Shown here in pieces: positions 1 to 39,563 of a stretch of 39,563 nt of DNA. Positions within the stretch are counted from its first letter, which is position 1, and each line of letters opens with the position of its first letter. The notes below the pieces were generated by a model, which ran no database searches, had not been told where the DNA came from, and saw nothing but the letters and a program-made list of their open reading frames with translations. The translations under genes were made by a program, and so were the position numbers. Origin of the DNA: a virus; the UHGV virus genome UHGV-0170560; one strand, written 5' to 3'.

Positions 1-29
1 CGGCAGCGTCAGATGTGTATAAGAGACAG
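1..29. other. Sequencing adapter remnant (Nextera/Tn5 read-1 adapter with mosaic end); not biological
   Basis: Bases 1-29 CGGCAGCGTCAGATGTGTATAAGAGACAG equal the Nextera transposase adapter lacking its first 4 nt. Confidence 0.9.
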
Positions 30-109
30 CCTTAATACGCAATACATTTACTTTCCTCTTTTGATGATCTTAAATGTCTTATTTTTCGTAATGTGTATAA
101 CAAGGAATA

Positions 110-628
110 GTGATGAAATTTAAAAAATGTCTTCTGCCTGTGGTAATGTTAGCGTCATTCACTCTGGCAGGATGCCAGTCAAATGCTGATGATCATGCCG
201 CCGATGTTTATCAAACCGATCAACTGAATACCAAACAAGAAACTAAAACCGTTAATATTATTTCCATTCTTCCCGCAAAAGTTGCCGTAGACAACTCCCA
301 AAATAAACGAAACGCACAAGCCTTCGGCGCGCTTATTGGTGCAGTCGCTGGCGGTGTTATTGGCCACAACGTCGGGTCTGGCAGCAATTCCGGAACGACG
401 GCAGGTGCAGTTGGCGGCGGAGCTGTTGGCGCGGCAGCGGGTTCTATGGTGAATGATAAAACCTTAGTGGAAGGTGTTTCTCTAACGTATAAGGAAGGCA
501 CCAAAGTGTATACCTCCACCCAGGTGGGTAAAGAGTGCCAGTTTACGACAGGTTTAGCCGTTGTTATTACCACGACGTATAACGAAACGCGTATTCAGCC
601 AAATACCAAATGTCCTGAAAAGAGCTAA
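110..628 (+). CDS. Lipoprotein with glycine-zipper-like Gly/Ala-rich segment (cargo/moron)
   Basis: 172-aa ORF; AAGGAA RBS before tandem ATG; N-terminal signal with lipobox LAGC; GAVAGGVIG...GGGAVGAAAG stretch. Confidence 0.7.
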   Translation: MMKFKKCLLPVVMLASFTLAGCQSNADDHAADVYQTDQLNTKQETKTVNIISILPAKVAVDNSQNKRNAQAFGALIGAVAGGVIGHNVGSGSNSGTTAGAVGGGAVGAAAGSMVNDKTLVEGVSLTYKEGTKVYTSTQVGKECQFTTGLAVVITTTYNETRIQPNTKCPEKS

Positions 629-643
629 TAATCAGGAGGAGTC

Positions 644-1183
644 ATGAAGAAAGTTTTTCTTTGCGCCATCTTAGCTTCCTTAAGCTATCCGGCTATCGCC
701 TCATCATTGCAGGATCAACTCTCTGCTGTCGCAGAAGCGGAACAGCAAGGTAAAAATGAAGAGCAAAGGCAGCATGACGAATGGGTCGCGGAGCGCAACA
801 GGGAAATCCAGCAAGAGAAGCAACGTCGCGCAAACGCCCAGGCCGCCGCTAACAAAAGAGCGGCAACGGCAGCGGCAAATAAGAAAGCTCGTCAGGATAA
901 ACTGGACGCCGAAGCCTCTGCGGACAAAAAACGCGATCAAAGTTATCAAGATGAGCTACGCAGCTTAGAGATTCAGAAACAAAAACTGGCGCTGGCGAAA
1001 GAAGAAGCCCGCGTTAAGCGAGAAAACGAATTTATCGATCAGGAACTGAAGCACAAAGCTGCGCAAACCGATGTGGTGCAATCTGAAGCTGACGCAAACA
1101 GGAATATGACTGAGGGCGGTCGAGATCTGATGAAAAGCGTGGGCAAAGCAGAAGAGAACAAATCGGACAGCTGGTTTAATTAA
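644..1183 (+). CDS. Secreted charged coiled-coil protein (cargo/moron), function unknown
   Basis: 179-aa ORF 15 nt after previous stop with AGGAGG RBS; Sec-type signal peptide ending AIA; K/E/Q/A-rich body. Confidence 0.6.
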   Translation: MKKVFLCAILASLSYPAIASSLQDQLSAVAEAEQQGKNEEQRQHDEWVAERNREIQQEKQRRANAQAAANKRAATAAANKKARQDKLDAEASADKKRDQSYQDELRSLEIQKQKLALAKEEARVKRENEFIDQELKHKAAQTDVVQSEADANRNMTEGGRDLMKSVGKAEENKSDSWFN

Positions 1184-1224
1184 TCGATGTAAGTAACTTC
1201 AAGCCTATAATTCTTGAAGATAAA

Positions 1225-1254
1225 AAACCCTCTGTAGTAACAGAGGGTTTTGTT
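1225..1254. terminator. Rho-independent terminator, potentially bidirectional
   Basis: Stem CCCTCTG (1228-1234) / CAGAGGG (1241-1247), loop TAGTAA, A-run upstream and T-run downstream; lies between convergent genes. Confidence 0.7.
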
Positions 1255-1402
1255 CATTCATAGTGCAGGGATCAAAATCATTCCCACTCAATTATTTACG
1301 GCAACCATAACCAATTGAGTGATAACATTTTTCCAAAACTTCATTTTTTTAGTACCGTTTTATATACCGTCACCGGAAATCAGTACCATGAAAAATGCCA
1401 TG

Positions 1403-1885
1403 CTATCTTGTCAGGGTGTCATACTGTTTTTCGCAGACTCTTCCGGCTTCGGCTGCCCGGTCAGCATACTCTGCCAGTTGTCTGTTTCTCTCGAGAGATT
1501 TGCTGAGCACGTCGGCAAGCAAAACTCCGGTGTCTGCGGCTGACGTCCCAGCGCCGACAATGGCGTTATACTGCCTGAGCTGCTCACGGATGGCAACGAG
1601 CTGTTTCTGCAACCGGCCAGCGCGAGCGGCAGCATCAAGAGCATCATTGCGCGCCTGGTCGATCCTCTGCTGCGCTTCACGTTCATTGATCGCTTTCTCC
1701 TGTTCGTAGTGCTGACGAACTTTCTCATCTTCGGCTTTGCGCTCTTCCTTCGCCTGCACATACCCGGCGTCGTACTGACGGCTACCGTGCACATTCCAAG
1801 CAACAATTCCGGATATGACCAGAACAGCAAGCATCACCACGATAATTAACTGTTTCCAGTATGCTTTTGCGAATGCCCAGATCAT
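1403..1885 (-). CDS. Rz-like i-spanin (lysis)
   Basis: 160 aa; N-terminal TM helix then charged coiled-coil periplasmic domain; ATGA start/stop overlap with upstream endolysin; embedded lipoprotein ORF in +1 frame. Confidence 0.75.
   Translation of the reverse strand: MIWAFAKAYWKQLIIVVMLAVLVISGIVAWNVHGSRQYDAGYVQAKEERKAEDEKVRQHYEQEKAINEREAQQRIDQARNDALDAAARAGRLQKQLVAIREQLRQYNAIVGAGTSAADTGVLLADVLSKSLERNRQLAEYADRAAEAGRVCEKQYDTLTR
1411..1686 (-). CDS. Rz1-like o-spanin, embedded in Rz in alternate frame
   Basis: Internal Met followed by basic n-region and MMLLMLPLALAGC lipobox, Pro-rich mature part; start ambiguous (alternative ATGs at 1647/1644). Confidence 0.5.
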   Translation of the reverse strand: MNVKRSRGSTRRAMMLLMLPLALAGCRNSSLPSVSSSGSITPLSALGRQPQTPEFCLPTCSANLSRETDNWQSMLTGQPKPEESAKNSMTP

Positions 1886-2511
1886 ACCGCCAGCACCTTA
1901 CTGGCAGTGATGTACCGCGCGCGCCGGTCGTCGATGCCGTTCCGGCCACCATTGATAATCAGAGTTACACGTGCAATATCGCCGGTATACTTCATGCATC
2001 CTTTGCTGGCAAAGAACCACGCTGCGCTACGAGCCGCATATTCGTCATGCGCCAGCAATTCAGGGCTCTCCAGCAGGTCAACCTTCAGACCGTTTCCGCA
2101 ATCACGATAGTTATTCAAACCGGTTATCTGGATAAGCCCGCGCCCACGGTAATTCCAGCCATCGCCGGGAGCATTGTTACCCATGCGTTTGCTGTACACC
2201 AGATTGGCGATCGCTCGCTGGCGCTCGAGTGGCAATGGAGGTTCGCCTGCGCGGCGACCCAATGCGTTGGCCTGTCCCTGAGTGAGACGCCCAGCCCGAA
2301 CGAAGTTAGCCAGTCCGGTGACACTGTAGTTGAAATTCTCCTGCAACCGGATGAAACCACCAGACTCATGCCCGACCTGAGCAATAAACATTGCCTGATC
2401 TTCAGCTTTGCTGATACCAAACTCTTTCATCGCAGAAGTTATATGCGAGAACCAGCGTGCGGCCAGCGCCTCGCTAATACCAGCAGCTCGCTGGAATTGT
2501 TTAATCTCCAT
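1882..2511 (-). CDS. Endolysin, glycoside hydrolase family 19 (chitinase-like lysozyme)
   Basis: 209 aa; motifs QVGHESGGF and NYRGRGLIQITGLNNY match the GH19 catalytic signature; sits between holin and Rz. Confidence 0.85.
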   Translation of the reverse strand: MEIKQFQRAAGISEALAARWFSHITSAMKEFGISKAEDQAMFIAQVGHESGGFIRLQENFNYSVTGLANFVRAGRLTQGQANALGRRAGEPPLPLERQRAIANLVYSKRMGNNAPGDGWNYRGRGLIQITGLNNYRDCGNGLKVDLLESPELLAHDEYAARSAAWFFASKGCMKYTGDIARVTLIINGGRNGIDDRRARYITASKVLAV

Positions 2512-2809
2512 GTTTAGACCTCGTTATTTTGAAAATCTGAACGACGTTACCGCGAGTTTTAAGAACCGCAGCAAACATGACAGCGTTGATAATGACCTCA
2601 GATAAATCCACAGCCATTGGCGTGCGTAACCAGATTGCATAGACGACACGAACAGGAATACTGGCCGCAGCAACAATAAGGAAATAAGCAAGCCACCCTC
2701 CCCATCTTCGGTGTTGTGAACCGTTACGCCGGAATGTGACAACACGAATTGCTATGCCAGTACAAATAAGTGCATTGGTGATAAGCAAAAAATACTCATG
2801 CGTTACCAT
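2501..2809 (-). CDS. Holin-like small membrane protein
   Basis: 102 aa with 2-3 hydrophobic helices and charged C-terminus; overlaps endolysin start by 11 nt. Confidence 0.6.
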   Translation of the reverse strand: MVTHEYFLLITNALICTGIAIRVVTFRRNGSQHRRWGGWLAYFLIVAAASIPVRVVYAIWLRTPMAVDLSEVIINAVMFAAVLKTRGNVVQIFKITRSKHGD

Positions 2810-3155
2810 CGCCTTTTCTCCCCGGAATTAACTCGCGTGGATTATCGGAGCGGTGATAGAGCCAGATGCCAATTCGCACTGCGACGATTGCTGACACGAA
2901 TGCGCCGGCAGAGAAAACAATCCCTTTCTCGAAGGAATCCTGTGTGATGGTAGGGATCAGGCTGGCTATGCCGATAAGAATTGATGCTGCTGGTTTGTAA
3001 AAAAGAAGGCCGCAAAGAAAGCTGAGCATCGACAGGAGTACCCGGCGGCGGATCGGATATTCGACAGCAGAGGTAACAAAAATCACAGCTCCAGCAAGGG
3101 AGCCTAAAGCCACCTCAGGAGGTGCTCCTGCTATAACCGCCGCCAGAGAACTCAT
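2796..3155 (-). CDS. Holin/antiholin-like membrane protein
   Basis: 119 aa, several predicted TM helices, first gene of the lysis cassette; overlaps next gene by 14 nt. Confidence 0.55.
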   Translation of the reverse strand: MSSLAAVIAGAPPEVALGSLAGAVIFVTSAVEYPIRRRVLLSMLSFLCGLLFYKPAASILIGIASLIPTITQDSFEKGIVFSAGAFVSAIVAVRIGIWLYHRSDNPRELIPGRKGDGNA

Positions 3156-3315
3156 GCTAAGCCACTGATTTAAAGACTCATTGGTTATCTAAACTGACAT
3201 AAAAACCACCGTTTAATGTGCATGAAGAACCACCTTAGTATGGGGTTCACCATGCATATTAAACCATATATGAATAGTTATTACCTCTACATCAATTAAA
3301 TCACTATCATATAAA

Positions 3316-5901
3316 TTACATCTGGTTATTAATTTTCATTTCAATATTTTTAATGCGCTCAACCAATCCTCGCATAATGAAACGATCAAGTTCTTGATCG
3401 CGGAATTGCCACAAATCTCCTGCTTTCTTAACTAATTTTTTTTCACCAGTATTCACAGGAACAATGAATTTTTCACCATTTTGATCCGTAATTAACTCAT
3501 CTTTAATGACATCTTCATATACATCATCCCATTTGTCATACCCTATAAATCCATAATCTCGCCAGTCCAGGCCCTCATCCTCTAAAACAGCAATAACTGC
3601 CTGAACAGTGGTGCCAGAGTGCAACCTTTTAGAATCATCATCAATCCATGTCCAGAAACCTAGCAGATCAGCCACTTTAATTGCTGCATTAATTTCAGAT
3701 TTGGTGAATCCGCGAATCGGGTCTTTAAGACGACCATCTGAACTTGACTGGGTTCCTCCGGCAAAATAACCAATGTTATATCGTAGTGATGCGCTACCTA
3801 TATTTGAAGTGGCATCAGCTCCAGGAGTGATTCCCCCTGATGTTGCTATTTGCATTGCTGGAGTAGATCCAGACCCATCAGGTCTGAACTGTAATTGACC
3901 TACACTGTTGTATTGTGTTCTCATGAACCAAGATGTAGCATTGCCATTACTGAGCAGGCCAAGAATAGCATCAGAACCAGATGGAGCCGATACAGTGTAC
4001 ATTCCTGTCTTAGTGAGTGACGTCATGGTTTTTCCATCCTTGCTGACCAATAGTCTGTCGGAGCTTGCATCCATCATCACTTTCCATCCTGTAGACCCAT
4101 CAGCAGCATTCTTCGTAAACTGAATTGATGCGTCACCAATATTCCCATCAGAGCCAAGAATTGCAACGGTATAACCGCCTGCTGGGTCTTTACCCACAAC
4201 TCCAAATCTACCGTTTAGCGGATCGCCTGAAACTATTATTTTTACAGGAATCACTCCGGCAAAATTGTCATTAAATATCTGAGAAATATAATTCATGCGC
4301 ATGCCATAAAAACTAACACCTCTCTTTACATTCTCAGAACCAATAAAAGTCGGAATATCTGAATTTGTAATACCATAAGGTGATTGCTCTACCACACCAC
4401 CATAAAACTGGATGTTGGATGCGTGATCAAATTCTAATGCATGATTAGCTCTGGTTCTAAACTCACAGCCATAAAAGTAATGCCCATTTATTTCAGCGGA
4501 TGTCGCATTAACATCACCATCTATATAAAGGCATCGCCATGTGTTTGCGCTAGAGTAATAAGAAACAAGCTCTTCATGAGACATTGATGCGCGACTGTGG
4601 TGATCAAGGGTATAAATACCACATTTATCTACTCTAGTTCCGCTGAGACCATAACTTGCAGGCCCAGTGTTTGAACCAAGAATTGCTAAACCGACTCGCC
4701 CCATAGTTGACCCACCAGTAATGGTATTGTAATCAGGGTCATCGTTTCCTTGCTTTGACTGAATTATTGTACCTGCTTTTGAAAAGTATCCGAATACACA
4801 AACATCCTCCTGAAGATTTCTTGCAGAGTCATCGTAATAAACCCCACACTCATAATCTGCACGTTGGTCTTCATCAGGTTTTGTGTGATTACCGATGGAA
4901 TCATAACAAATCATGTCTTGAACCACGGCAATGCCTTTAAGGACAGATCCACTTGAACCATATTCTGGAGAAAGAACTCTCACGCAATATCGAACACTTG
5001 CGAAATGATCGTCTCTGTTATCTGTAGTAGCTATCTTTGTTCCTGCTCCAGAAAATATAAACGTAGCACCAGGCATATTTTCTTTTCTACCTTCAGCAAG
5101 AAAGAATTTGTCATCATCAGTACCAAATCCAAGAACAGGAGAACCATTACCAATGAATCGAAAATCACCAGGTATTTCTATACCATCAGAGAATCGATAA
5201 ACCCCATCAGGAACAAAAAAAGTTTTCTTTCCAGATGCAAGCAAAGCCTGCCACTGCGTTAAGTTGTCCGTTTTATAGTCACCTTTTAATCCAAAATCGG
5301 TTATGCTGACTGTATCTCGCATCTTATCCTGGAACGTTCGATATATCGCACCAGAACCATACTGAATAAACCAACCAAAACCACCAACAACTCCGGCGAT
5401 TGCAGCATCAACATAATTACGCATTGAGCGATTATTTACAGCATCCTGCTCAAGTGATGGATCTGCAAGGTTAGAAATTCTGTTTTGCTTTGCATCGTAA
5501 TATTTTGCAAGCAAAGATGGTTTCATCAATGCACGTCTGAACCACCCAAAACATTGCTGGATCAGCATCGTCAGGTAGTCAAAAGCATCTTCATGCACTT
5601 CGGGGAAAAATTTTCCCTGATTGCGAAGGTCTGTCTCCTGCACTACATCAAGCACACGATCTATCGTAATTCGCCATCCAGCAGCAAGCGGCGACGGAAG
5701 AACAACAGAACCGCCACTATAAGTGCCCGCCCCAGTTACCGTATAACCGGTATCCAGAACCAATTCTGTTACGTTCCCGTTCAGGTCAGACACCTGAACA
5801 ACCAGGTCGGATTTTTTGAAAATACGGAAGGTATACGGAAATGATGTCGTAGCGCCGTTACCGGTGTATTCGTTGTGGTCAACTTCGGTTGAGACCGTCA
5901 T
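3316..5901 (-). CDS. Tail fibre/tailspike with T7 gp17-like N-terminal adaptor domain and C-terminal intramolecular chaperone (peptidase S74-like) domain
   Basis: 861 aa; N-terminal ~110 aa resemble the T7 gp17 adaptor region by recollection; C-terminal ~140 aa begin with SSDGRLKD (S-D-x-R-x-K autoprocessing motif); central part AT-rich. Confidence 0.8.
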   Translation of the reverse strand: MTVSTEVDHNEYTGNGATTSFPYTFRIFKKSDLVVQVSDLNGNVTELVLDTGYTVTGAGTYSGGSVVLPSPLAAGWRITIDRVLDVVQETDLRNQGKFFPEVHEDAFDYLTMLIQQCFGWFRRALMKPSLLAKYYDAKQNRISNLADPSLEQDAVNNRSMRNYVDAAIAGVVGGFGWFIQYGSGAIYRTFQDKMRDTVSITDFGLKGDYKTDNLTQWQALLASGKKTFFVPDGVYRFSDGIEIPGDFRFIGNGSPVLGFGTDDDKFFLAEGRKENMPGATFIFSGAGTKIATTDNRDDHFASVRYCVRVLSPEYGSSGSVLKGIAVVQDMICYDSIGNHTKPDEDQRADYECGVYYDDSARNLQEDVCVFGYFSKAGTIIQSKQGNDDPDYNTITGGSTMGRVGLAILGSNTGPASYGLSGTRVDKCGIYTLDHHSRASMSHEELVSYYSSANTWRCLYIDGDVNATSAEINGHYFYGCEFRTRANHALEFDHASNIQFYGGVVEQSPYGITNSDIPTFIGSENVKRGVSFYGMRMNYISQIFNDNFAGVIPVKIIVSGDPLNGRFGVVGKDPAGGYTVAILGSDGNIGDASIQFTKNAADGSTGWKVMMDASSDRLLVSKDGKTMTSLTKTGMYTVSAPSGSDAILGLLSNGNATSWFMRTQYNSVGQLQFRPDGSGSTPAMQIATSGGITPGADATSNIGSASLRYNIGYFAGGTQSSSDGRLKDPIRGFTKSEINAAIKVADLLGFWTWIDDDSKRLHSGTTVQAVIAVLEDEGLDWRDYGFIGYDKWDDVYEDVIKDELITDQNGEKFIVPVNTGEKKLVKKAGDLWQFRDQELDRFIMRGLVERIKNIEMKINNQM

Positions 5902-6059
5902 GTTAAATCTCCAGATAGTCGCAGCACCCGTTGCGCCGCATATCTGGTTATTCTATTACCTGAAAAACCACATATGGATAGATAACCCATAAATACGAAA
6001 AGATATTACCTTTCAGGTGATTTGCAAAACGTGCTGGATAGCAAACAAATTATTTGATA

Positions 6060-6075
6060 CTGTATATTTATACAG
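6060..6075 (+). promoter_or_regulatory. LexA (SOS) box
   Basis: CTGTATATTTATACAG = CTGT-N8-ACAG with AT-rich spacer, flanked TA..TT, about 20 nt upstream of the 6097 start codon. Confidence 0.65.
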
Positions 6076-6096
6076 TTATTGCATGGAGAAGATAAG

Positions 6097-6354
6097 ATGC
6101 AGCAGTATCACTATCCACTGGAAGACGGATTTACCGAAAGGATTCACACGCCGGGAGGCGTCAGATCACTGGTGGAGGGATCGCACTTGATGAAATTACT
6201 CCGGGATCTCGATAAGGATGGATTTAATGTCGATGGCCCACTTGCCGAACTGACTGCACTGATTAACTACGTCACCAGCTCACAGATGTCTATGCGGGAT
6301 CTGCAAACACATCTCGACTATTGTGCCGAACAATTACGAAAACAAACCAGATAA
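6097..6354 (+). CDS. Small protein paralogous to the C-terminal domain of the downstream antirepressor
   Basis: 85 aa from ATG with GGAGAA RBS (track ORF begins at an upstream TTG); aligns with the last ~65 aa of the 6670..7380 protein (shared pattern IH.P.GV..L.E.S.LM.LL..L..DG..V.G..AELT....Y.......RD.QTH..Y). Confidence 0.6.
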   Translation: MQQYHYPLEDGFTERIHTPGGVRSLVEGSHLMKLLRDLDKDGFNVDGPLAELTALINYVTSSQMSMRDLQTHLDYCAEQLRKQTR

Positions 6355-6490
6355 GGTTTGCAATTACCAAGTGGAGTGCTTATATTTACCTTTGAGGTGA
6401 ATTTACATCGCACTCCTCTTATGCCATAGTAATCGGGCACTGGCAAAATCCAGTGCCGGGATTGGCGTCCCGGGTTACTAAGTGGCGCAT

Positions 6491-6514
6491 ACCACGCCAG
6501 ACGTGGTTTTTTTA
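6491..6514 (+). terminator. Rho-independent terminator-like hairpin
   Basis: Stem ACCACG/CGTGGT with loop CCAGA followed by TTTTTTT. Confidence 0.6.
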
Positions 6515-6669
6515 TGCGTTAAGCACAGCTATATCCGAATTATGGTGGGCTGGGCAGGGGTCCGAAAGGACGCCGGTACCACTTAGGCCGGTACGCCAAC
6601 CTTGTCCAGTTCACCACCAGTAATTGGCGTTGCGGTGGTGATTAAAATCACTAAGTGGAGATAACCACC

Positions 6670-7380
6670 ATGGCTAATGCTCAAACTGCCATCTTCAAAT
6701 TTGAATCTGTTAACCCTATCCGTTCCATCATTATCGATGGCCAACCATGGTTTGTAGCCCAAGACGTTTGTAGTGCGCTGCGTATCCAAAACGTCACCCA
6801 AGCACTTGAAAAACTGGATGATGATGAAAGGTCTATGTTCAACATAGGGCATGAACATCGTGCAATTTTTGACAGCCGAGTAAAAGAGATCAACATCATC
6901 TCCGAGTCAGGCCTCTACACACTGATCCTCCGCTGCCGCGACGCAGTGACACCAGGCACTATCCCCTACCGCTTTCGTAAATGGGTTACAGGTGAGGTTC
7001 TTCCTCAGATCCGCCGCACCGGAAGTTACATTAAAAACTCGCTCCCGCAGGAAGAACGCATAAAGATGGTTGCCGACCAGGTAGCCAACGCCACGGCGTC
7101 AGCAGTAATGCAGGCGATGAAGATAGAGAACAAAACCTACAGCGCCCCGCTGCAGCCCGGCTACCGCAGCCTGATTCACTCGCCGTCTGGTGTTCTCGGC
7201 CTGACGGAGAACTCACTGCTGATGAATCTGCTGAACCAGTTACAGGACGACGGGCACGACGTATCGGGCGCGGCGGCGGAGCTGACCACCATGTTCTGCT
7301 ACATCGTCGGTGTGAGTAAATGCCTGCGTGATATCCAGACCCACGCGGAATACATCAACGACAAGGCAGGGTTCTTCTGA
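6670..7380 (+). CDS. Antirepressor (Bro-N domain protein)
   Basis: 236 aa from ATG preceded by GGAG; N-terminal Bro-N hallmarks (WFVAQDVCSAL, ISESGLYTLIL, FRKWVTGEVLPQIRRTGSY). Confidence 0.8.
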   Translation: MANAQTAIFKFESVNPIRSIIIDGQPWFVAQDVCSALRIQNVTQALEKLDDDERSMFNIGHEHRAIFDSRVKEINIISESGLYTLILRCRDAVTPGTIPYRFRKWVTGEVLPQIRRTGSYIKNSLPQEERIKMVADQVANATASAVMQAMKIENKTYSAPLQPGYRSLIHSPSGVLGLTENSLLMNLLNQLQDDGHDVSGAAAELTTMFCYIVGVSKCLRDIQTHAEYINDKAGFF

Positions 7381-25320: not shown

Positions 25321-25397
25321 GTGGCATTAGCTCAGTTGGACAGAGCAACCGCCTTCTAAGCGGTTGGCCGCAGGTTCGAATCCTGCATGCCACGCCA
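25321..25397 (+). tRNA. tRNA-Arg (anticodon UCU), CCA encoded
   Basis: Hand-folded cloverleaf: acceptor GTGGCAT/ATGCCAC, D-stem GCTC/GAGC, anticodon stem ACCGC/GCGGT with loop CTTCTAA, T-stem GCAGG/CCTGC with TTCGAAT loop; argU-like. Confidence 0.9.
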
Positions 25398-31830: not shown

Positions 31831-32349
31831 TTACTCACCTTCCTGTTCTTCCAGAAAAATACGCATAGCCTCAAGCATCTCTTCGGTGTCATACGGTGAC
31901 AACTTGTCACGCAGGATGTGTTCAATGCTGTTAATGAACTTGCGGATTGCTTTGCGTTCAATTTCAGCAAGGAATGCGTCGGTGGCCGGGGTTTTGATTT
32001 CGTTAAGTGCATCACTGAATCCACCTCTCTCCATACCTAGCTCTGCTTCGTAATCGGCATCGAATGCAGCGTCTTTGCAGAACTTCTTCAGCCCCGCATT
32101 CTCCGCAGCCAGCGCCGAAAATTTCTCGTGTGCCAACTTAACAGCTGCATCAGCCTGCTTAATTGACTCAATCGCTTTCTGCTGGTCTTCGGCCAGCGCA
32201 TTAGCACGCACCAGTTGCACTTCCAGTTGCGTTGCCAAATCGCTGATCAGCTTTGCCACACTGCGCATATCAACGGCACCACATTCTGCTTTCAGTTCCG
32301 AAGCCATCTCATGCCCGGCGGCAACTAACCCTTTGATATTACTTTCCAT
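31831..32349 (-). CDS. Hypothetical coiled-coil protein
   Basis: 172-aa ORF. Confidence 0.45.
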   Translation of the reverse strand: MESNIKGLVAAGHEMASELKAECGAVDMRSVAKLISDLATQLEVQLVRANALAEDQQKAIESIKQADAAVKLAHEKFSALAAENAGLKKFCKDAAFDADYEAELGMERGGFSDALNEIKTPATDAFLAEIERKAIRKFINSIEHILRDKLSPYDTEEMLEAMRIFLEEQEGE

Positions 32350-32410
32350 CTTTACCCTCGCTTATCCACATAACTTATTGATTACATTGATAACTAAAAA
32401 GATCGTCGAT

Positions 32411-32755
32411 TCAGAACTCTTCGATGTTCCAGCCACCACCCGCTTTCTTTGTCTTAACCGTTACCCCGATGATGCGAAACGGGTACTGGTCTGCTGCGAC
32501 TTTGGTTTTCACCCTGGCGTCGTCGGTCCAGAAACCTTTCACTTCGTGTAGTTCCATCTCGCCGGTGGCGAGCATCACAGCAAAATCGGGCGTATAGAAC
32601 GTGTTGTCAGCTAACCGCAGCTTGATACCCTCGAATCGATACCAGGCGATTTCCCCTGCACGTTTACGCAGCTCAAGGTGCTGGCAATACGCAGATTCTG
32701 TTTTGTTCATCTGGCCTGTTTTGAGTCGACCAAGAGCCTGTATCTGTTTTCTCAT
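32411..32755 (-). CDS. DUF1064-like protein
   Basis: 114 aa; YTPDFAV...ELHEVKGFWTDDARVK pattern recalled for DUF1064. Confidence 0.5.
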   Translation of the reverse strand: MRKQIQALGRLKTGQMNKTESAYCQHLELRKRAGEIAWYRFEGIKLRLADNTFYTPDFAVMLATGEMELHEVKGFWTDDARVKTKVAADQYPFRIIGVTVKTKKAGGGWNIEEF

Positions 32756-32872
32756 GATTTACCCCTTAGGTAATTAAAAACCACATAAGACATGAAATCA
32801 ATAGAAGTTAGAAGATTTTATTACCTTCTAGGTAATCATATAGACGTAAAAAAATGCGCTATCGCGCTGGTA

Positions 32873-33673
32873 TTACTTGATAAATCCTGCCGCCTTTCCC
32901 CGCCTGTATTCCTCCATCAGCCACTGCGCCGGTGTTATTCCCCCAAGGGTGGCGGCGTTAGGCATGCACCCGAAACTTCGCCCTGGTGGATGGTAAACGT
33001 CTCTCCCTGTGTCCGGAGGCGTACTCATGGGTTCTGGCTTTGCCTGTATGCTGATCACCGGATCGGGTATCTGCTGTCCGGAAGCCACCTTTTTCGCCCA
33101 ATCATCGAGCAGCCTGCGCGCGTGTTTCTCAACCTCAATCTCGCTAAGCTGGCGCTGATACATTGCACGGCGGGTATCACATACGACCCAGTACATAACC
33201 GGATGTCGCCACGGGAATCTTTCCGGACCACCAGGATATAAACTTTTTTCCTTGCTGTACCGGTGAAACTCCGCCATCACATCGTCAATGGTGATGCCAA
33301 GAACCATCTTGCTGTCTTTACACCACTTGATGAATTGCCCTGGCGACGGCCAGAACGGAGATTCACTGGCGCGGGCGTGGCGCATACCAGCAGAAACCTG
33401 TTCACGGGTTCGGATCCCACCTTCGGCAAACGCAGCAATCCACTGCTGTTTTGCAGCGACTTCCTGCTCTGGCGTCTTCAGGTTGGTTACCACTGCCGCC
33501 GGAAACAGTTGTTTCAGCTGTTTGAAAAGGGCATCAACAAGCCTCTCTGCTGACATGTTCACCACATTGTCATTGTTGACGTACTGATGCTCATAACCTG
33601 ACATGCGAGAAAGGGCTTCTCCGTCACGGTTTTGTATCGCGGTAAAAACGTTGTTCACAAGAAATCCTCCCAC
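32873..33673 (-). CDS. Replication protein P-like (helicase loader)
   Basis: 266 aa; QWIAAFAEGGIRTREQVSAGMRHARASESPFWPSPGQFIKWCKD closely parallels lambda P by recollection. Confidence 0.8.
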   Translation of the reverse strand: MGGFLVNNVFTAIQNRDGEALSRMSGYEHQYVNNDNVVNMSAERLVDALFKQLKQLFPAAVVTNLKTPEQEVAAKQQWIAAFAEGGIRTREQVSAGMRHARASESPFWPSPGQFIKWCKDSKMVLGITIDDVMAEFHRYSKEKSLYPGGPERFPWRHPVMYWVVCDTRRAMYQRQLSEIEVEKHARRLLDDWAKKVASGQQIPDPVISIQAKPEPMSTPPDTGRDVYHPPGRSFGCMPNAATLGGITPAQWLMEEYRRGKAAGFIK

Positions 33674-34470
33674 GCTTCAGGGCTGTTCCAGTGCGGAACG
33701 TTGTTATCAGGTAATGTTGATTGCTTCTGTCTGCTAATCTGCAGCCGCCTTGCCAGCTTCTGCTCCCACTGTGCCTGATGGTATGCCTTACCCTCAGCCA
33801 TCCAGTAAATTCTGAACTCTGCAAGTTCCTGTGCCGTTGGCAGACTGTCCAGGTAGATTCCCTGCAATGAGCTTTTTCGAAGAAAGTCATCTGATGGCTG
33901 CCATTGTTCATGCATGACAAATTTGCCTAATTGCCCTGGCCCACCAGGAGGAACAAAGTTATTCATCACGGCGTTGTTTGCGCCGGGGTCATGAGGCACA
34001 GAATCCCCGGTTTTTGTCCTGCTCTCCCTCTCTTGGTTAAATGACTGGTTATATGACTGGTTCTGGATCCCGTTTTTGGGATCATTCAACATCCCGTTTT
34101 TGGGATCATTCAACATCCCGTTTTTGGGTATATTCCCGTTTTCGGGAACATTACCGTTTTCGGGTTCATTACCCCCCTCCCGGTTGCCTTTAATGTTCCC
34201 GTTTTTGGTTATATTAAGAGAGAAAACCCGCACTCTTTTCGTCGCTCCCTTTCTCTCTCCGGTATCTAAAATAAGCCCCATTTTCATGAGCGATATAAGC
34301 CCGGCCTGCACGGTTTTTTTATTCAGGCAAGTGTCTTTAACGAGGCGTTCTATGCTGGGGTAGCAGAGGTTATATTCATCGGCTCTGTCAGCCATCGAGA
34401 GCAGTATGAGCTTTAATGACGAGCTACCTGGATCTGTCTCCCAGGCCCAATCTGTTGCATGTCTGCTCAT
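33655..34470 (-). CDS. Replication initiator O-like protein (iterons inside the gene)
   Basis: 271 aa; N-terminal HTH-like domain; internal NGN.P.NG repeat region encoded by the iteron array; overlaps the P-like gene. Confidence 0.75.
   Translation of the reverse strand: MSRHATDWAWETDPGSSSLKLILLSMADRADEYNLCYPSIERLVKDTCLNKKTVQAGLISLMKMGLILDTGERKGATKRVRVFSLNITKNGNIKGNREGGNEPENGNVPENGNIPKNGMLNDPKNGMLNDPKNGIQNQSYNQSFNQERESRTKTGDSVPHDPGANNAVMNNFVPPGGPGQLGKFVMHEQWQPSDDFLRKSSLQGIYLDSLPTAQELAEFRIYWMAEGKAYHQAQWEQKLARRLQISRQKQSTLPDNNVPHWNSPEAWEDFL
34066..34215. repeat. Iteron array, probable replication origin within the O-like gene
   Basis: Two perfect 24-bp copies ATCCCGTTTTTGGGATCATTCAAC (34066-34089, 34090-34113) plus 3-4 degenerate copies. 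Confidence 0.75.
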
Positions 34471-34485
34471 GATTAATCTCCGCTA

Positions 34486-34686
34486 TCAGCTTGAATGTTG
34501 TGGGGAGGAATTAATCATGATCTGCTTAATCTCTGCCCTGATACGACGGTTTGATTCCATGGTGCACTCAACACAGTGTCCGTTGTAAACCCAGCGTTCA
34601 CTGTCATGTCCGTGCTTACATGTTTTTCCGGTGTAGTAGCGTTTAAGTCCGCGCTTTGCGGCATCAATACGTGTAATGATTTCCAT
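34486..34686 (-). CDS. Small putative zinc-ribbon protein at the cII position
   Basis: 66 aa from internal ATG (start uncertain); CKHGH...CVEC motif. Confidence 0.4.
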   Translation of the reverse strand: MEIITRIDAAKRGLKRYYTGKTCKHGHDSERWVYNGHCVECTMESNRRIRAEIKQIMINSSPQHSS

Positions 34687-34790
34687 GGTAAGCCCTGTTA
34701 TTAGTATTGGGATTACGGTCATTTTGTGCTGACACAAAAAAAAGATCAACCAGATTTGGTTTTTTATTACCTTTGAGGTGCGAATAGATA

Positions 34791-34814
34791 TGAAAAGACC
34801 GCCGGGTGGCGGTC
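34791..34814 (-). terminator. Rho-independent terminator downstream of the Cro-like gene (tR1-like position)
   Basis: Stem GACCGCC/GGCGGTC with loop GGGT; T-run on the minus strand. Confidence 0.65.
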
Positions 34815-34836
34815 TACAGAGGGTTGTAGCTGGATA

Positions 34837-35067
34837 TCATGAGTAGAAGAAGTATGCCAGTTCTGCTTTTGAGCGCAGCCATTGTCTTGTTTTACAGGCT
34901 TTAAAAAGCCCATTCATCAATACTTTACCTGGCATTTTGCGCTTACCTGTTAAGTGAGTCTGGATATAGTGACTCGTCGTTCCGGCTTCCTGTGCGAAGG
35001 CTTCACGCTCATCCGGAGTAAGTGCAAGCCAGTGCTTTTTGAAATCGAAATGTCCGTTATCGCTCAT
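34837..35067 (-). CDS. Cro-like HTH regulator
   Basis: 76 aa with HTH-like segment EAFAQEAGTTSHYIQTHLTG; divergent from the repressor gene across an operator-rich intergenic region. Confidence 0.55.
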   Translation of the reverse strand: MSDNGHFDFKKHWLALTPDEREAFAQEAGTTSHYIQTHLTGKRKMPGKVLMNGLFKACKTRQWLRSKAELAYFFYS

Positions 35068-35103
35068 AGCTATTGCCTGATATTTATTTCAGATAATAAA
35101 TAT

Positions 35104-35166
35104 TCACCCATAAGGTAACAAAAATCAAGGATAGTTACCTATGGGGTGCATTTACCTGTTGGGTAA
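35104..35166. promoter_or_regulatory. Three adjacent operator-like palindromes in the repressor/cro intergenic region
   Basis: TCACC-CATAA-GGTAA (35104-35118), TTACC-TATGG-GGTGC (35135-35149), TTACC-TGTTG-GGTAA (35152-35166). Confidence 0.6.
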
Positions 35167-35221
35167 TATTGCTTTAAATTGAATCATCTACTGATTCATA
35201 TATGAGGCGATTTTCCAGAAA

Positions 35222-35806
35222 ATGAAAAGTATCCAGGACGTCCGCAGGCAAAATCTCAACGACTTGATCGACCGTGAATTCAATGGTGTTCAGACGCGGA
35301 TGGCAGAAAAACTTGGAACTCAGGCAAATCTGGTAAACCGCTGGGCTCTTGGCAAGAAGGTTATCGGCGACCAGGTTGCGCGAAAAATTGAAGCTGCCGC
35401 CAATAAACCACGTAACTGGCTTGATATCGATCGCTCGCTTTCTCAGGAAGGTTTTCAGCCTGTCGGCCCAAGCGACATTGGTCAGCTGGCGGCTCACAAC
35501 CTGGAACGCTGGATGAGCGAAAGCCGCGACCTTTCAACACAGGGAAAACTTCACCGCGCATCCGGCGTCGCCCAGGTGACAATCAGCCGCCTGTTAAACA
35601 ATGAGGTCAGCGTTTCCATTTCCACCCTGGAGAATGTTGCATCTGCATTCGGGCGTCACGGATATGAATTACTGATTCACCCGCACGACCCCGCGACTAT
35701 CAACTATGACCGCTCGCGCTACGCATTGTTACCTGAAACAGAGAAGGCAAAGATCGAAAGTTACATTGAATTTGTCATCAACCAGAACGAAAAAAGCAAA
35801 CAATAA
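35222..35806 (+). CDS. CI-like repressor without recognisable S24 autocleavage domain
   Basis: 194 aa with two HTH-like segments; no Ser/Lys peptidase-type C-terminal motifs recognised. Confidence 0.6.
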   Translation: MKSIQDVRRQNLNDLIDREFNGVQTRMAEKLGTQANLVNRWALGKKVIGDQVARKIEAAANKPRNWLDIDRSLSQEGFQPVGPSDIGQLAAHNLERWMSESRDLSTQGKLHRASGVAQVTISRLLNNEVSVSISTLENVASAFGRHGYELLIHPHDPATINYDRSRYALLPETEKAKIESYIEFVINQNEKSKQ

Positions 35807-35828
35807 AACTATAGTTTTCAGCAAGTAA

Positions 35829-35850
35829 GCCGCCTCATGGCGGCTTTTTT
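35829..35850 (+). terminator. Rho-independent terminator after the repressor gene
   Basis: Stem GCCGCC/GGCGGC with loop TCAT followed by TTTTTT. Confidence 0.75.
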
Positions 35851-35959
35851 ATTGCCCATGAAATTACCTTACGGGTAATTTTTTTAACTCATATCTATTG
35901 ACATCAAACCAAATACGAATAATCATTACCTCAACAGTAACAAGCCGAGGTAACAAGTT

Positions 35960-36112
35960 ATGCAGTGGAAAATCATCAACGGTTGGTACTGCGTTACTGC
36001 ATGCGGATTCATGAGCTGGAAGTTCCGCACCTTACAGGAAGGCATTAAGTGGGCTTTCGTCAGCAAAGAAGCTCGCGATGTGGCCAACGATAACGAGATA
36101 TGGGAGGGCTGA
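35960..36112 (+). CDS. Hypothetical small protein, first gene of the leftward-early-like operon
   Basis: 50 aa, below track cutoff, GAGG RBS; preceded by an operator-like palindrome at 35864-35878. Confidence 0.4.
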   Translation: MQWKIINGWYCVTACGFMSWKFRTLQEGIKWAFVSKEARDVANDNEIWEG

Positions 36113-36114
36113 TA

Positions 36115-36414
36115 ATGAACGTTAATCAGCAGAAAAATCTTCAAAAAATCATGCTGGCATTCGACAAGGACTACCGCCTGTCAGAACAGCTATATGACCG
36201 ACAAGTTGAACTGATTGAGAGCATCCGACTTCATCAACTGTCCTCAACTTTCGACGTTGTAACAGGCAAAGGCGTTCGCCAGGAAGTACTGGAGGCTGCT
36301 AAAGACAGCCCTGAGTTCGAAGAACTGATGGATGCATACCGGCGCGAGGCAATGGCAATTATCGCCCGCTGGGATCTGGCGGATCAGCTTGATGGGCAGA
36401 GGGACGCGGCATGA
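36115..36414 (+). CDS. Hypothetical protein
   Basis: 99 aa from ATG preceded by GGGAGGG; coupled to the exonuclease gene. Confidence 0.5.
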   Translation: MNVNQQKNLQKIMLAFDKDYRLSEQLYDRQVELIESIRLHQLSSTFDVVTGKGVRQEVLEAAKDSPEFEELMDAYRREAMAIIARWDLADQLDGQRDAA

Positions 36415-37232
36415 AAGCGGGAATTTATTTCGACATCAGCAACGAAGACTACCACGCCGGTGACGGCGTGAGTAAATCGCAACTGGACATGGTTGCCAAG
36501 AATCCGGCGCTTCTTAAATGGGTTCAGGCAGCACCAGAAGACGAAGAGAAAAAGTCTGCACTGGATATGGGAACCGCATTGCACTGTCTGCTTCTGGAGC
36601 CTGGAGAGTTCGACAAACGCTTCATTGTTTCACCGAAATTCGAACGTCGGACGAAACAAGGTAAAGCTGACGAAGAGGCATTTCTTCGTGATGTGGCGGA
36701 TATGGGGATTACGGTACTTGATGCCGAGCAGTGGCGGAAACTGGAGCTGATGCGTGATAGCGCAATGGCTCACCCGGCGGCACGCTGGATGCTGGAAGCA
36801 CCTGGTTACTGCGAAGCATCAATGTACTGGAACGATGAAGATACTGGTGAGTTGTGCCGCATTCGTCCAGACAAATGGCTGAACGAGCACAACGTGATCG
36901 TCGACGTGAAAAAGGTTGCAGATATGGACCGTTTTGCACGCCACATCGAGGAATTCCGCTACCACGTGCAGGACGCAATGTACCGCGAAGGCGCAATGAG
37001 GGTTACTGGTCAGCCGCATGGTTTTTTCTTTCTTGCCGTGAGCGAAAGCATTGATTGTGGTCGATATCCGGTACGCGTGTTCGAGCTGGATGCGCCGGAT
37101 GTCGATGCCGGGCACGCTCTGTTCCGCCGGGATCTGAATACCTATCACGAATGCCGCATCAACGATGAGTGGGGCGGAGTGGAAATTATTAAACGCCCTG
37201 ACTGGGCACGCAAACAGGATATGTACATATGA
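36411..37232 (+). CDS. PD-(D/E)xK-type recombination exonuclease
   Basis: 273 aa; D...E/D-x-K-like motifs (RIRPDKW, VIVDVKK); directly upstream of and coupled to the annealing-protein gene. Confidence 0.6.
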   Translation: MKAGIYFDISNEDYHAGDGVSKSQLDMVAKNPALLKWVQAAPEDEEKKSALDMGTALHCLLLEPGEFDKRFIVSPKFERRTKQGKADEEAFLRDVADMGITVLDAEQWRKLELMRDSAMAHPAARWMLEAPGYCEASMYWNDEDTGELCRIRPDKWLNEHNVIVDVKKVADMDRFARHIEEFRYHVQDAMYREGAMRVTGQPHGFFFLAVSESIDCGRYPVRVFELDAPDVDAGHALFRRDLNTYHECRINDEWGGVEIIKRPDWARKQDMYI

Positions 37233-38170
37233 GCAACGACATCGCAAACATCAACGCACCAGTAGACACAGCAATCGCTGGAACTGCTGCAACTATTTTC
37301 AGCCCAGACGGCTTGAACCAACTGATGAAATTCGCCGAGGTAATGGCGCAAAGCCGCGTAACGGTACCGGCGCATCTCGCCGGGAAACCAGCTGATTGCA
37401 TGGCCGTGGCAATGCAAGCTGCGCAGTGGGGAATGAACCCGTTTGCCGTGGCTCAGAAAACCCATGTTGTGAACGGCACGCTAGGTTATGAAGCCCAATT
37501 AGTAAACGCAGTTATCTCAACGATGTCGCCAACAAAAGATCGCATCAACTACGAGTGGTTCGGGCCGTGGGAACGCGTGATCGGTAAGTTTGTTGAGAAA
37601 ACATCCAAAAACGGCAATCCATATATCGCACCAGGCTGGACTCTAAAAGACGAAGAAGGCTGCGGTGTTCGCGTATGGGCAACCATGAAGGGCGAGGATC
37701 AACCTCGAGTGCTTGAGTTAATGCTGTCTCAAGCACAGGTAAGAAACTCCACACTTTGGGCCAGTGATCCGAAACAACAACTCGCATACCTTGCGACAAA
37801 ACGCTGGTCTCGCTTGCACTGTCCTGACGTAATCATGGGCGTCTACACACCAGACGAATTACAGGAAACGGCACCGCGCGTTGAGCGAGACATTACTCCG
37901 CAAACGACCACTGCTGCGGGAATGAACAGTCTGATCAACGCTAAACAAGTGAAAAAGCCTGATGAGCAAACGCGTAAAGCGGATAGCCGTGATCCAGAAG
38001 AAATGCTGATGGCCTTTACCAGCGCAGCGATGAATTACAGCACTGTCTCCGAACTGGATAAAGCTTACAAATACATTGCACAAAAACTTTCAGATGATGA
38101 CGAACTGCTGGCAAAAGCCACCGACGTTTACAGCGTTCGTCGGGAAGAATTAAACGAAACATCTATGTAA
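37229..38170 (+). CDS. Single-strand annealing protein, Redbeta/RecT-like
   Basis: 313 aa; QWGMNPF...NGTLGYEAQ and ERDITPQ resemble lambda Redbeta regions (QYGLNPW, ERDITPV) by recollection. Confidence 0.6.
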   Translation: MSNDIANINAPVDTAIAGTAATIFSPDGLNQLMKFAEVMAQSRVTVPAHLAGKPADCMAVAMQAAQWGMNPFAVAQKTHVVNGTLGYEAQLVNAVISTMSPTKDRINYEWFGPWERVIGKFVEKTSKNGNPYIAPGWTLKDEEGCGVRVWATMKGEDQPRVLELMLSQAQVRNSTLWASDPKQQLAYLATKRWSRLHCPDVIMGVYTPDELQETAPRVERDITPQTTTAAGMNSLINAKQVKKPDEQTRKADSRDPEEMLMAFTSAAMNYSTVSELDKAYKYIAQKLSDDDELLAKATDVYSVRREELNETSM

Positions 38171-38219
38171 CCACCACCGCGGCGCCACGCGCGTCGCACT
38201 GCAACCAAGAGAGGTATTT

Positions 38220-38468
38220 ATGAAAGGTGCATTAGGTAAGAAGGAACTCCTGGCGGTGGTGCCACTGTCATGGAGCACTATCGACCGCATGGAGCGCGCA
38301 GGGGAATTTCCTAAACGCTGGTATATCACTGACAAACGCTGCGCATGGAACCGTGATGAAGTTGAGCGTTGGCTTGATGAACGTCAGGCAGCAAGCCCGG
38401 CAGAGTTCCAGGGTAAAAAGCCTCCTGTTCAGCAACGTGTATATCGTCCTGTGAGCAACGCTGCATGA
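38220..38468 (+). CDS. AlpA/excisionase-like HTH regulator
   Basis: 82 aa; LSWSTIDRMERAGEFPKRWYIT...WNRDEVERWL fits the AlpA-type HTH pattern. Confidence 0.6.
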   Translation: MKGALGKKELLAVVPLSWSTIDRMERAGEFPKRWYITDKRCAWNRDEVERWLDERQAASPAEFQGKKPPVQQRVYRPVSNAA

Positions 38469-38577
38469 GTGTGCTGCTAAGGCACTGGAGCAAATGGTCA
38501 GGATGGTACTTATTCCTGGCCTCTGTTTCAGCATGGCTTTATCTGCTGGCATTAATTTTCAGAGAGGGTTGGATTAA

Positions 38578-38877
38578 GTGAAAAAGTTAAGCCGACTTGA
38601 AAAATATCACATGAACAAGGTTTCAATGCGCAGTCCGTCAAAGATTGTCGCCGTTACTCCTGCGGCGATAGAGATCGAAAAACGCGCGATTGAAAGAGAG
38701 AAAAAAGGGCAGTTCCGCATTGCCGCTCACCTTTGGCTTCAGTGTATGGATGTTGCTTCTGGTGATGTTGAGCGTGCGAGGATCGCGGTTCGCAGGGACC
38801 AATGTATCACAAAAGGTAACGGCCTTCGCCGTGGCGACTATAGCGGCATAGGATGTTGTGGGGTGGTTTATGACTAA
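38578..38877 (+). CDS. Hypothetical protein (weak, uncertain resemblance to PerC-type small regulators)
   Basis: 99-aa ORF, GTG start, weak GAGGG RBS. Confidence 0.35.
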   Translation: MKKLSRLEKYHMNKVSMRSPSKIVAVTPAAIEIEKRAIEREKKGQFRIAAHLWLQCMDVASGDVERARIAVRRDQCITKGNGLRRGDYSGIGCCGVVYD

Positions 38878-39520
38878 GAAATACACACTAATCTATGCAG
38901 ATCCACCCTGGGTATACCGGGACAAAGCCGCAGATGGTAATCGCGGTGCCGGTTTTAAATATCCGGTTATGAGTGTGCTGGACATCTGCCGCCTTCCTGT
39001 GTGGGATTTGGCCGATGAAAACTGTCTGTTGGCCATGTGGTGGGTGCCAACACAACCACTCGAAGCACTAAAAGTTGTTGAAGCCTGGGGATTCCGTCTG
39101 ATGACCATGAAGGGATTCACGTGGATAAAATGTGGTAGTCGACAACCAGATAAACTGGTTATGGGTATGGGACACATGACTCGCGCCAATAGTGAAGATT
39201 GCCTGTTTGCGGTAAAGGGAAAACTACCTCCGCGCATTAATGCAGGTATCGTTCAGTCATTTACCGCACCGCGGCTTGAGCACTCAAGAAAACCAGATGT
39301 CGTTCGTGAAAAACTTGTGCAATTGTTAGGCGATGTTTCTCGCATTGAACTGTTCGCCCGCCAGTCGTCTCATGGCTTCGATGTTTGGGGTAATCAGTGC
39401 GAAGACCCGGCAGTGCAACTACACCCTGGATACGCGTTGGATATTGGCGGATTAACAAATGCATTCAGCAATTCTCCGCTGTCACCAACAGACAACCAGG
39501 GGCGGGAGCGTGCAGCATGA
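38870..39520 (+). CDS. DNA N6-adenine methyltransferase, MT-A70 family
   Basis: 216 aa from ATG; DPPW catalytic motif in IYADPPWVY near the N-terminus; stop codon lies 2 nt before the adapter. Confidence 0.75.
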   Translation: MTKKYTLIYADPPWVYRDKAADGNRGAGFKYPVMSVLDICRLPVWDLADENCLLAMWWVPTQPLEALKVVEAWGFRLMTMKGFTWIKCGSRQPDKLVMGMGHMTRANSEDCLFAVKGKLPPRINAGIVQSFTAPRLEHSRKPDVVREKLVQLLGDVSRIELFARQSSHGFDVWGNQCEDPAVQLHPGYALDIGGLTNAFSNSPLSPTDNQGRERAA

Positions 39521-39522
39521 AC

Positions 39523-39563
39523 CTGTCTCTTATACACATCTGACGCTGCCGACGATCGCATAA
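39523..39563. other. Sequencing adapter remnant (reverse complement of Nextera read-1 adapter plus 8-nt index-like tail); not biological
   Basis: CTGTCTCTTATACACATCTGACGCTGCCGACGA followed by TCGCATAA. Confidence 0.9.

Follow-up and report, generated by a model that had tools for sequence, protein, structure and literature searches.

A 41-nt tail of very probable Nextera library origin caps a phiV10-like Escherichia coli prophage contig

Introduction

The UHGV virus genome UHGV-0170560 was analysed over its whole length of 39,563 nucleotides, referred to below as the window. Its last 41 bases, positions 39523 to 39563, follow almost directly on the stop codon of a methyltransferase gene and raise the question of whether they belong to the genome or to the sequencing library. 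An earlier note on the same letters had favoured the library, and had drawn consequences for the methyltransferase gene and for the lack of an integrase in the window. The answer therefore bears on where the genuine sequence stops, on whether the neighbouring gene is complete, and on what kind of molecule the window represents.

Results

Identity of the terminal sequence

The last 264 and the first 240 bases of the window were read directly, and the adapters were compared by exact string matching. Positions 39523 to 39555 on the plus strand, with the letters CTGTCTCTTATACACATCTGACGCTGCCGACGA, matched the reverse complement of the full 33-nt Nextera read-1 (Tn5 ME-A) adapter TCGTCGGCAGCGTCAGATGTGTATAAGAGACAG in 33 of 33 positions and were annotated as an artefact. 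The stretch was composed of the 19-nt mosaic end (39523 to 39541) followed by GACGCTGCCGACGA, both on the plus strand. The mosaic end of Tn5, CTGTCTCTTATACACATCT, directly abutted the insert at both ends of the window, at 39523 to 39541 (plus strand) and at 11 to 29 (minus strand), with 0 mismatches each, and no further copies with up to 3 mismatches were found in the window (expectation 0 in 100 shuffles). The A adapter matched the tail over 33 of 33 positions, whereas the B adapter matched only over the shared 19 nt, and the mosaic end was followed by the read-1-specific GACGCTGCCGACGA and not by the read-2-specific CCGAGCCCACGAGAC. The remaining octamer at 39556 to 39563 (plus strand), TCGCATAA, was the reverse complement of the i5 index S522 (TTATGCGA) and was likewise annotated as an artefact. 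P5, which would read GTGTAGATCTCGGTGGTCGCCGTATCATT as reverse complement, was absent from the window, and the contig stopped at the last index base.

At this end the adapter string CTGTCTCTTATACACATCTGACGCTGCCGACGATCGCATAA adjoined the last genomic bases ...GCAGCATGAAC, and two bases, AC (39521 to 39522), lay between the methyltransferase stop and the adapter. The earlier description of the tail as the reverse complement of the read-1 adapter was thus borne out, as were all of its coordinates, including the end of the methyltransferase reading frame at 39520 (TGA at 39518 to 39520), 2 nt before the adapter. A spurious reading frame of 55 amino acids was noted at 39394 to 39561 on the minus strand; it begins at an ATG within the index (TTATGCGA), consists of adapter over its first 13 codons, and runs antisense into the methyltransferase gene. 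A gene caller could list it as a hypothetical protein, and if reported it would be a false gene call.

The octamer had been taken for the reverse complement of an i5 index, and two published tables agree with this. The S522 primer is given as AATGATACGGCGACCACCGAGATCTACAC-TTATGCGA-TCGTCGGCAGCGTC in one primer table (PMC12630345), and S522 is listed with the index TTATGCGA in another (PMC7589761). The last 22 bases of the window, GACGCTGCCGACGATCGCATAA, were identical to the 3' 22 nt of the S522 primer read as reverse complement, so that the octamer stood in the correct slot beside TCGTCGGCAGCGTC.

Occurrence of the terminal string in other records

IMG/VR contigs contained the S522 22-mer in 34 stretches, and a single dataset (3300045988) accounted for 33 of these. 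In all 35 IMG/VR occurrences the complete mosaic end stood ahead of the 22-mer, and ahead of that came genomic sequence that was unrelated and differed each time; the 41-mer lay 0 to 11 nt from the contig end, once 74 nt. The octamer was followed by the start of the reverse-complement P5 (GTGTAGATCTC...) in 31 of the 35 occurrences, in one at full length, and reverse-complement P5 came after the 41-mer wherever a contig continued. The junction of the window itself, GGAGCGTGCAGCATGAAC running into CTGTCTCTTATACAC, had 0 matches in IMG/VR and in JGI metagenome contigs. Both A- and B-type adapters were present at IMG/VR contig ends (at least 120 matches per scan); some contigs were capped at both ends, and mixed A/B-capped contigs also existed. 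The occurrence of A-type adapters at both ends was considered as a signal and rejected, since both types are abundant and A with A is one of four ordinary outcomes. One of the contigs, IMGVR_UViG_3300045988_015885 (11462 bp), carried the S522 adapter at both ends with an identical 12-nt genomic flank (aggggtcagtag) on both strands, which suggests an inverted-terminal or palindromic assembly artefact.

Similar strings with other octamers were found in deposited phage records. Vibrio phage JSF6 (KY883635.1, locus 301-400) reads ...CCGACGA-TCTTACGC-GTGTAGATTTCGGTGGTCGCCGTGTCATT, the last part being reverse-complement P5, and then runs into homopolymer junk; TCTTACGC is the reverse complement of GCGTAAGA, an entry of the index table of PMC7589761. 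The JSF6 record is labelled circular and complete, and still holds the Nextera adapter and index near its end. The record of ESSI2_ev040 (LR597638.1, locus 301-345) reads ...CCGACGA-TCTACTCT, with another octamer in the index slot; here the adapter and TCTACTCT stand about 930 bp from the record end with other sequence after them, suggesting a chimeric join. Since these two records share the architecture of the tail but differ from it in the octamer, they and the IMG/VR contigs identify the 8-nt slot as the index slot, whose occupant in the window is S522.

Where the genuine sequence stops

The 3' kilobase of the window was compared with phage records by megablast and showed 98 to 98.6% identity to phiV10, TL-2011b, vB_EcoP_ZX5 and others. 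These matches ended at query positions 1022 to 1025, corresponding to 39521 to 39524 of the window, and for the final 37 to 41 bases the only matches were to the termini of unrelated phage records (Bacillus, Listeria, Vibrio and Escherichia). A three-way alignment with phiV10 and TL-2011b placed the break exactly between 39522 and 39523, where the relatives read ...GCAGCATGAAC-AGGGCATCACCAGC... and the window turns into adapter. The break fell at the first adapter base also against 9 independent assemblies that encode the identical methyltransferase. Homology ended at 39522 to 39525 for over 360 E. coli genomes as well as for phiV10 and TL-2011b, none of which carried the adapter. The adapter string was found in 0 of the 566 complete E. 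coli genomes having this region. An independent assembly with the tail as genuine DNA had been named as the finding that would overturn the adapter reading; the tail was absent from these 566 genomes, from the 9 assemblies, and from phiV10 and TL-2011b. The genuine sequence before the break, from 32192 to 39522, was 98.3% identical to the prophage of E. coli FDAARGOS_1268, and some E. coli genomes had up to 3 copies of the right-end region of the window.

The methyltransferase gene

The gene that ends beside the adapter (plus strand, starting at 38858 or 38870 and ending at 39520) was annotated as a complete MT-A70 family adenine methyltransferase gene on the basis of PF05063, its relatives and identical database proteins. 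Either GTG 38858 or ATG 38870 is the start, the ATG being more likely. The Pfam match to PF05063 covered profile positions 1 to 172 of 172 (E=7.6e-22, 78.5 bits against a cut-off of 23.9), and YADPPW, containing the DPPW catalytic motif, was invariant in the alignment of the window protein with its relatives. On these sequence features the product is identified as an adenine methyltransferase, and N6-adenine methylation is predicted.

Orthologues in phiV10, TL-2011b, FDAARGOS_1268 and EC21 showed 97 to 99% identity, the same stop position and the same end, ...NQGRERAA*. The 216-aa product, from ATG 38870 to the stop, was recorded without a single difference in 116 blocks of independent assemblies, some of them on contigs longer than 1 Mb. 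The earlier caution that the C-terminus should be treated as unverified can be lifted, since the stop shared by four relatives and the exact protein in independent assemblies verify it; the gene is usable as it stands. That the stop lies so near the adapter is coincidental and reflects the point at which the insert of the last read ended. In the EC21 prophage (locus 5054-6121) an extra DGQHR-domain gene, with a DndB/DpdB-like annotation, lies between PerC and the methyltransferase gene; it has no counterpart in the window (38877 to 38879) and is an accessory insertion by the methyltransferase gene in some relatives.

Prophage sequence missing beyond position 39522

Six bases at 39517 to 39522 (plus strand), ATGAAC, are the first 6 nt of a DUF1382 gene, whose ATG overlaps the methyltransferase TGA and which is cut at the end of the genuine sequence. 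In the relatives the DUF1382 gene overlaps the end of the methyltransferase gene by 4 nt (ATGA), and the sequence goes on as ATGAAC-AGGGCATCACC.... The order past the methyltransferase gene was a 64-aa DUF1382 protein, a 416-aa tyrosine integrase on the opposite strand, an att site and guaA, a layout seen in phiV10, TL-2011b, EC21, FDAARGOS_1268 and 8 of the 9 assemblies. The tyrosine integrase gene lay 200 to 1450 bp past the last genuine base of the window in all relatives examined, and in FDAARGOS_1268 the distance from that base to the att core was 1,633 bp. By comparison with these relatives, about 1.63 kb of prophage (DUF1382, the tyrosine integrase and the second att site) is predicted to be missing past the right end.

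No integrase or DUF1382 homologue was found inside the window by tblastn (integrase E>7); the P4-type tyrosine integrase expected beside the other att site is absent from the window. The absence of the integrase follows from truncation of the contig and is not evidence of its loss. The view of the earlier note that an integrase lacking from the window is not evidence that the phage lacks one agrees with this, as the gene lies just past 39522 in all relatives examined.

One assembly with the identical methyltransferase, GCA_022363095.1 (L045, locus 3648-4877), had an 82-aa gene and an AntA-domain gene in place of DUF1382. It reads ...CATGA-AGCAGATT where the others read ...CATGA-ACAGGGC, and so diverges immediately after the methyltransferase stop. 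This divergence right after ...CATGAA places the right end of the window on a mosaic module boundary.

The left end: adapter, host flank and attachment site

Positions 1 to 29 (plus strand) matched the Nextera read-1 (Tn5 ME-A) adapter in forward orientation in 29 of 29 positions, without its first 4 nt (TCGT), and were also annotated as an artefact. Homology to E. coli chromosomes began at base 30; the genomic base ahead of it in strain DTU-1 is C, where the adapter has G. Positions 30 to 1275 (plus strand) were annotated from genome matches, collinearity and Pfam as a flank of the E. coli core chromosome with yfgH (110 to 628) and yfgI (644 to 1183), whose products were assigned by Pfam to a glycine-zipper lipoprotein and to DUF5384, respectively. 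The flank taken up to 1292 had matches in 5422 of 5426 complete E. coli genomes at 95 to 100% identity. Collinearity with strain DTU-1, which lacks the prophage, extended to window position 1292, at which homology continued into guaA in prophage-free strains.

A 17-bp att core, AATCATTCCCACTCAAT, was located at 1276 to 1292 (plus strand), where host and prophage join on the Rz-proximal side. Its letters correspond, as reverse complement, to the final codons and stop of guaA, and it is the overlap between host homology (30 to 1292) and phiV10 homology (from 1276). One copy of the core was present in prophage-free DTU-1 (at the guaA stop), 1 in the free phage phiV10 and 2 in EC21, where they flank the prophage. 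As judged from these matches, the prophage is integrated at the 3' end of guaA, between guaA and yfgI. The RefSeq "complete genome" of TL-2011b (NC_019445.1, locus 1-3425) also runs past att into host DNA, with yfgI, yfgH and yfgG, and its F365_gp55, the yfgH homologue, is labelled "DNA methyltransferase", while the window orthologue is a glycine-zipper lipoprotein by Pfam.

The earlier note had treated the two ends of the window as a putative junction to be checked by PCR. This did not hold, for the left end is E. coli chromosome (yfgH-yfgI), and the ends are not adjacent in either the phage or the prophage map. As they are not neighbours, PCR across them should give no product. A Tn5 9-bp target duplication joining the ends of a circle was also considered and excluded: the first 9 genomic bases (CCTTAATAC) differ from the last 9 (AGCATGAAC), and the ends are therefore not two sides of one tagmentation event.

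In prophage-free E. coli the flank beyond the left break was single-copy (median 1 place per genome) and intergenic, with 120 bp at 23% G+C. No repeat or REP-like element that would explain the left break was found in this flank, and a repeat-induced break is accordingly not supported.

Identity and content of the prophage

Positions 1293 to 39522 (no strand assigned) were annotated by nucleotide identity as a phiV10-like (Uetakevirus-type) prophage of 38,230 bp, truncated at its integrase-proximal end. The part from 1293 to 26000 showed 97% identity over 81 to 87% to HEMP4, phiv142-3 and phiV10, and the part from 33513 to 39522 showed 98% identity to phiV10. Read from left to right, the window is a chromosomal contig made up of adapter, yfgH-yfgI, att, 38,230 bp of phiV10-like prophage, and adapter again.

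Two RNA features above the Rfam gathering threshold, isrK (6437 to 6513) and C4 antisense RNA (6538 to 6621), were found directly upstream of a Bro-N domain reading frame (6655 to 7380). Together these look like a P1/P7-style c4-antirepressor immunity module in a phiV10-like prophage. A phage-borne tRNA-Arg (anticodon TCT) was located at 25321 to 25397, between the terminase and portal regions; the EC21 prophage and the O157 typing phages 9 and 10 have it annotated as well.

Discussion

Origin of the terminal sequence and of the contig ends

The reading preferred here, to which we give a probability of about 96%, is that the 41-nt tail is untrimmed Illumina library sequence and not genome, capping an E. 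coli contig with a phiV10-like prophage. A Nextera molecule has the order P5-i5-ME_A-insert-ME_B'-i7'-P7', and where read 2 exceeds its insert in length, it passes from the insert into CTGTCTCTTATACACATCTGACGCTGCCGACGA and from there into the reverse complements of the i5 index and, last, of P5. This read-2 read-through form was seen at both window ends, once on each strand. The library would have been made with Nextera chemistry (Tn5 tagmentation), with S522 as the i5 primer in the amplification. On short inserts, read 2 would run off into the reverse-complement ME-A adapter, the i5 index and P5, and such reads would have been left untrimmed or only partly trimmed. Where the genuine path gave out, as it did twice, the assembler may then have had no extension to follow other than an adapter tail, one read-through read giving the 3' end (insert ending at 39522) and another, on the opposite strand, giving the 5' end (insert ending at base 30). 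The comparisons above show the identity of adapter and index, the exact break points, the host flank, the complete methyltransferase gene and what comes next in the relatives. We infer the read-through mechanism from how such libraries are built, and any cause given for the stop of the assembly at these two places is also an inference. A tagmentation coverage gap is consistent with the left break, which lies beside the 120-bp stretch of 23% G+C, and a graph branch is compatible with the right break at its mosaic boundary.

That branch could replace a coverage gap as the cause of the right break only, with a strain mixture or a second related prophage offering more than one path at the module boundary. 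The relatives do diverge immediately after the methyltransferase stop (GCA_022363095.1 against the others), and the threefold presence of the region in some E. coli genomes would provide such paths, but a unitig broken in this way should end at the last shared base, 39521, and the window has one more base of the DUF1382 type. The left end, moreover, has no known repeat, its flank occurring at a median of 1 place per genome and holding no REP element. A branch is thus a possible but rather unlikely cause of this break. A different proposal would make the tail genuine DNA, for example the end of a Tn5/IS50-type transposon that had inserted behind the methyltransferase gene. In its favour, IS50 ends are the source of the 19-nt mosaic end, of which the window has one copy at each terminus in inverted orientation. 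The match, however, is to the synthetic hyperactive mosaic end with a synthetic 14-nt primer site and a catalogue index, and not to the natural outside or inside ends of IS50; dozens of unrelated genomes have the same string attached, with P5 following it there, 0 of the 566 E. coli genomes with this region carry it, and nothing transposon-like stands beside either copy. With a synthetic primer site and index after the mosaic end, and with the string on dozens of unrelated genomes, a natural Tn5/IS50 end was excluded, and a genuine tail of any such kind is extremely improbable.

The adapters could also be artefacts on a contig whose ends are real, that is, an aberrantly excised and packaged phiV10-like genome of the specialised-transducing type, carrying yfgH-yfgI with 1.25 kb of host DNA gained and about 1.63 kb lost on the DUF1382/int side. 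A gain at one end with a loss at the other is the geometry of lambda gal/bio-type particles. The host DNA gained roughly balances the phage DNA lost, and the genuine span of 39,493 bp is near both the 39.1 to 39.9 kb of related complete genomes and the approximately 39.9 kb inferred for the prophage (38,230 + 1,633 + 17). Such an excision, if true, would join ...GCAGCATGAAC directly to CCTTAATACGC..., but no sequence joins the two ends, across which an excised circle or concatemer should have assembled, and no novel joint of the host flank to the prophage interior occurs within the window, both ends of which run into adapter. Tagmentation does not mark the ends of molecules, so that the adapters are silent on physical termini, and adapter-capped ends are commonplace in unrelated contigs. 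The left break lies by the 23% G+C intergenic stretch, where poor Tn5 coverage is expected, and a contig of about 40 kb is unremarkable, the match in length being a single coincidence. A transducing genome is therefore very improbable, and read-through from an integrated prophage is retained as the explanation.

For users of the record the finding matters only for data hygiene: the 41 and 29 adapter bases are to be trimmed, and the recovered index S522 could help to trace the library of origin. The contig should be regarded neither as a complete phage genome nor as one that can be circularised. The missing integrase should likewise not be read as a sign of a non-temperate lifestyle; the sequence is an integrated temperate prophage with a 1.25 kb host flank.

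Comparison with known systems

The tail resembles Nextera i5-side read-through contamination in the order of mosaic end, 14-nt read-1 primer site and 8-nt index and in its terminal place. It differs from read-through on other contigs in that the window is without the P5 part and its left adapter copy is 4 nt short; nothing essential differs. Compared with phiV10 gp33 and the MT-A70 phage methyltransferases, the window protein is alike in its full-length domain, DPPW motif, length and C-terminus, and shows no difference of note (97 to 99% identity, with the 216-aa product identical to database entries). The prophage has the same gene order as phiV10, TL-2011b, phiv142-3 and HEMP4, epsilon15-like temperate podoviruses at guaA, at about 97 to 98% nucleotide identity over most of the window, and shares with this group the PerC, MT-A70, RecT and repressor genes, the Rz end and the att core. 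Its tailspike and accessory regions are partly different (81 to 87% of the query covered), whereas DUF1382, the integrase and the second att site are missing only because the contig ends earlier, and 1.25 kb of host flank is present in addition.
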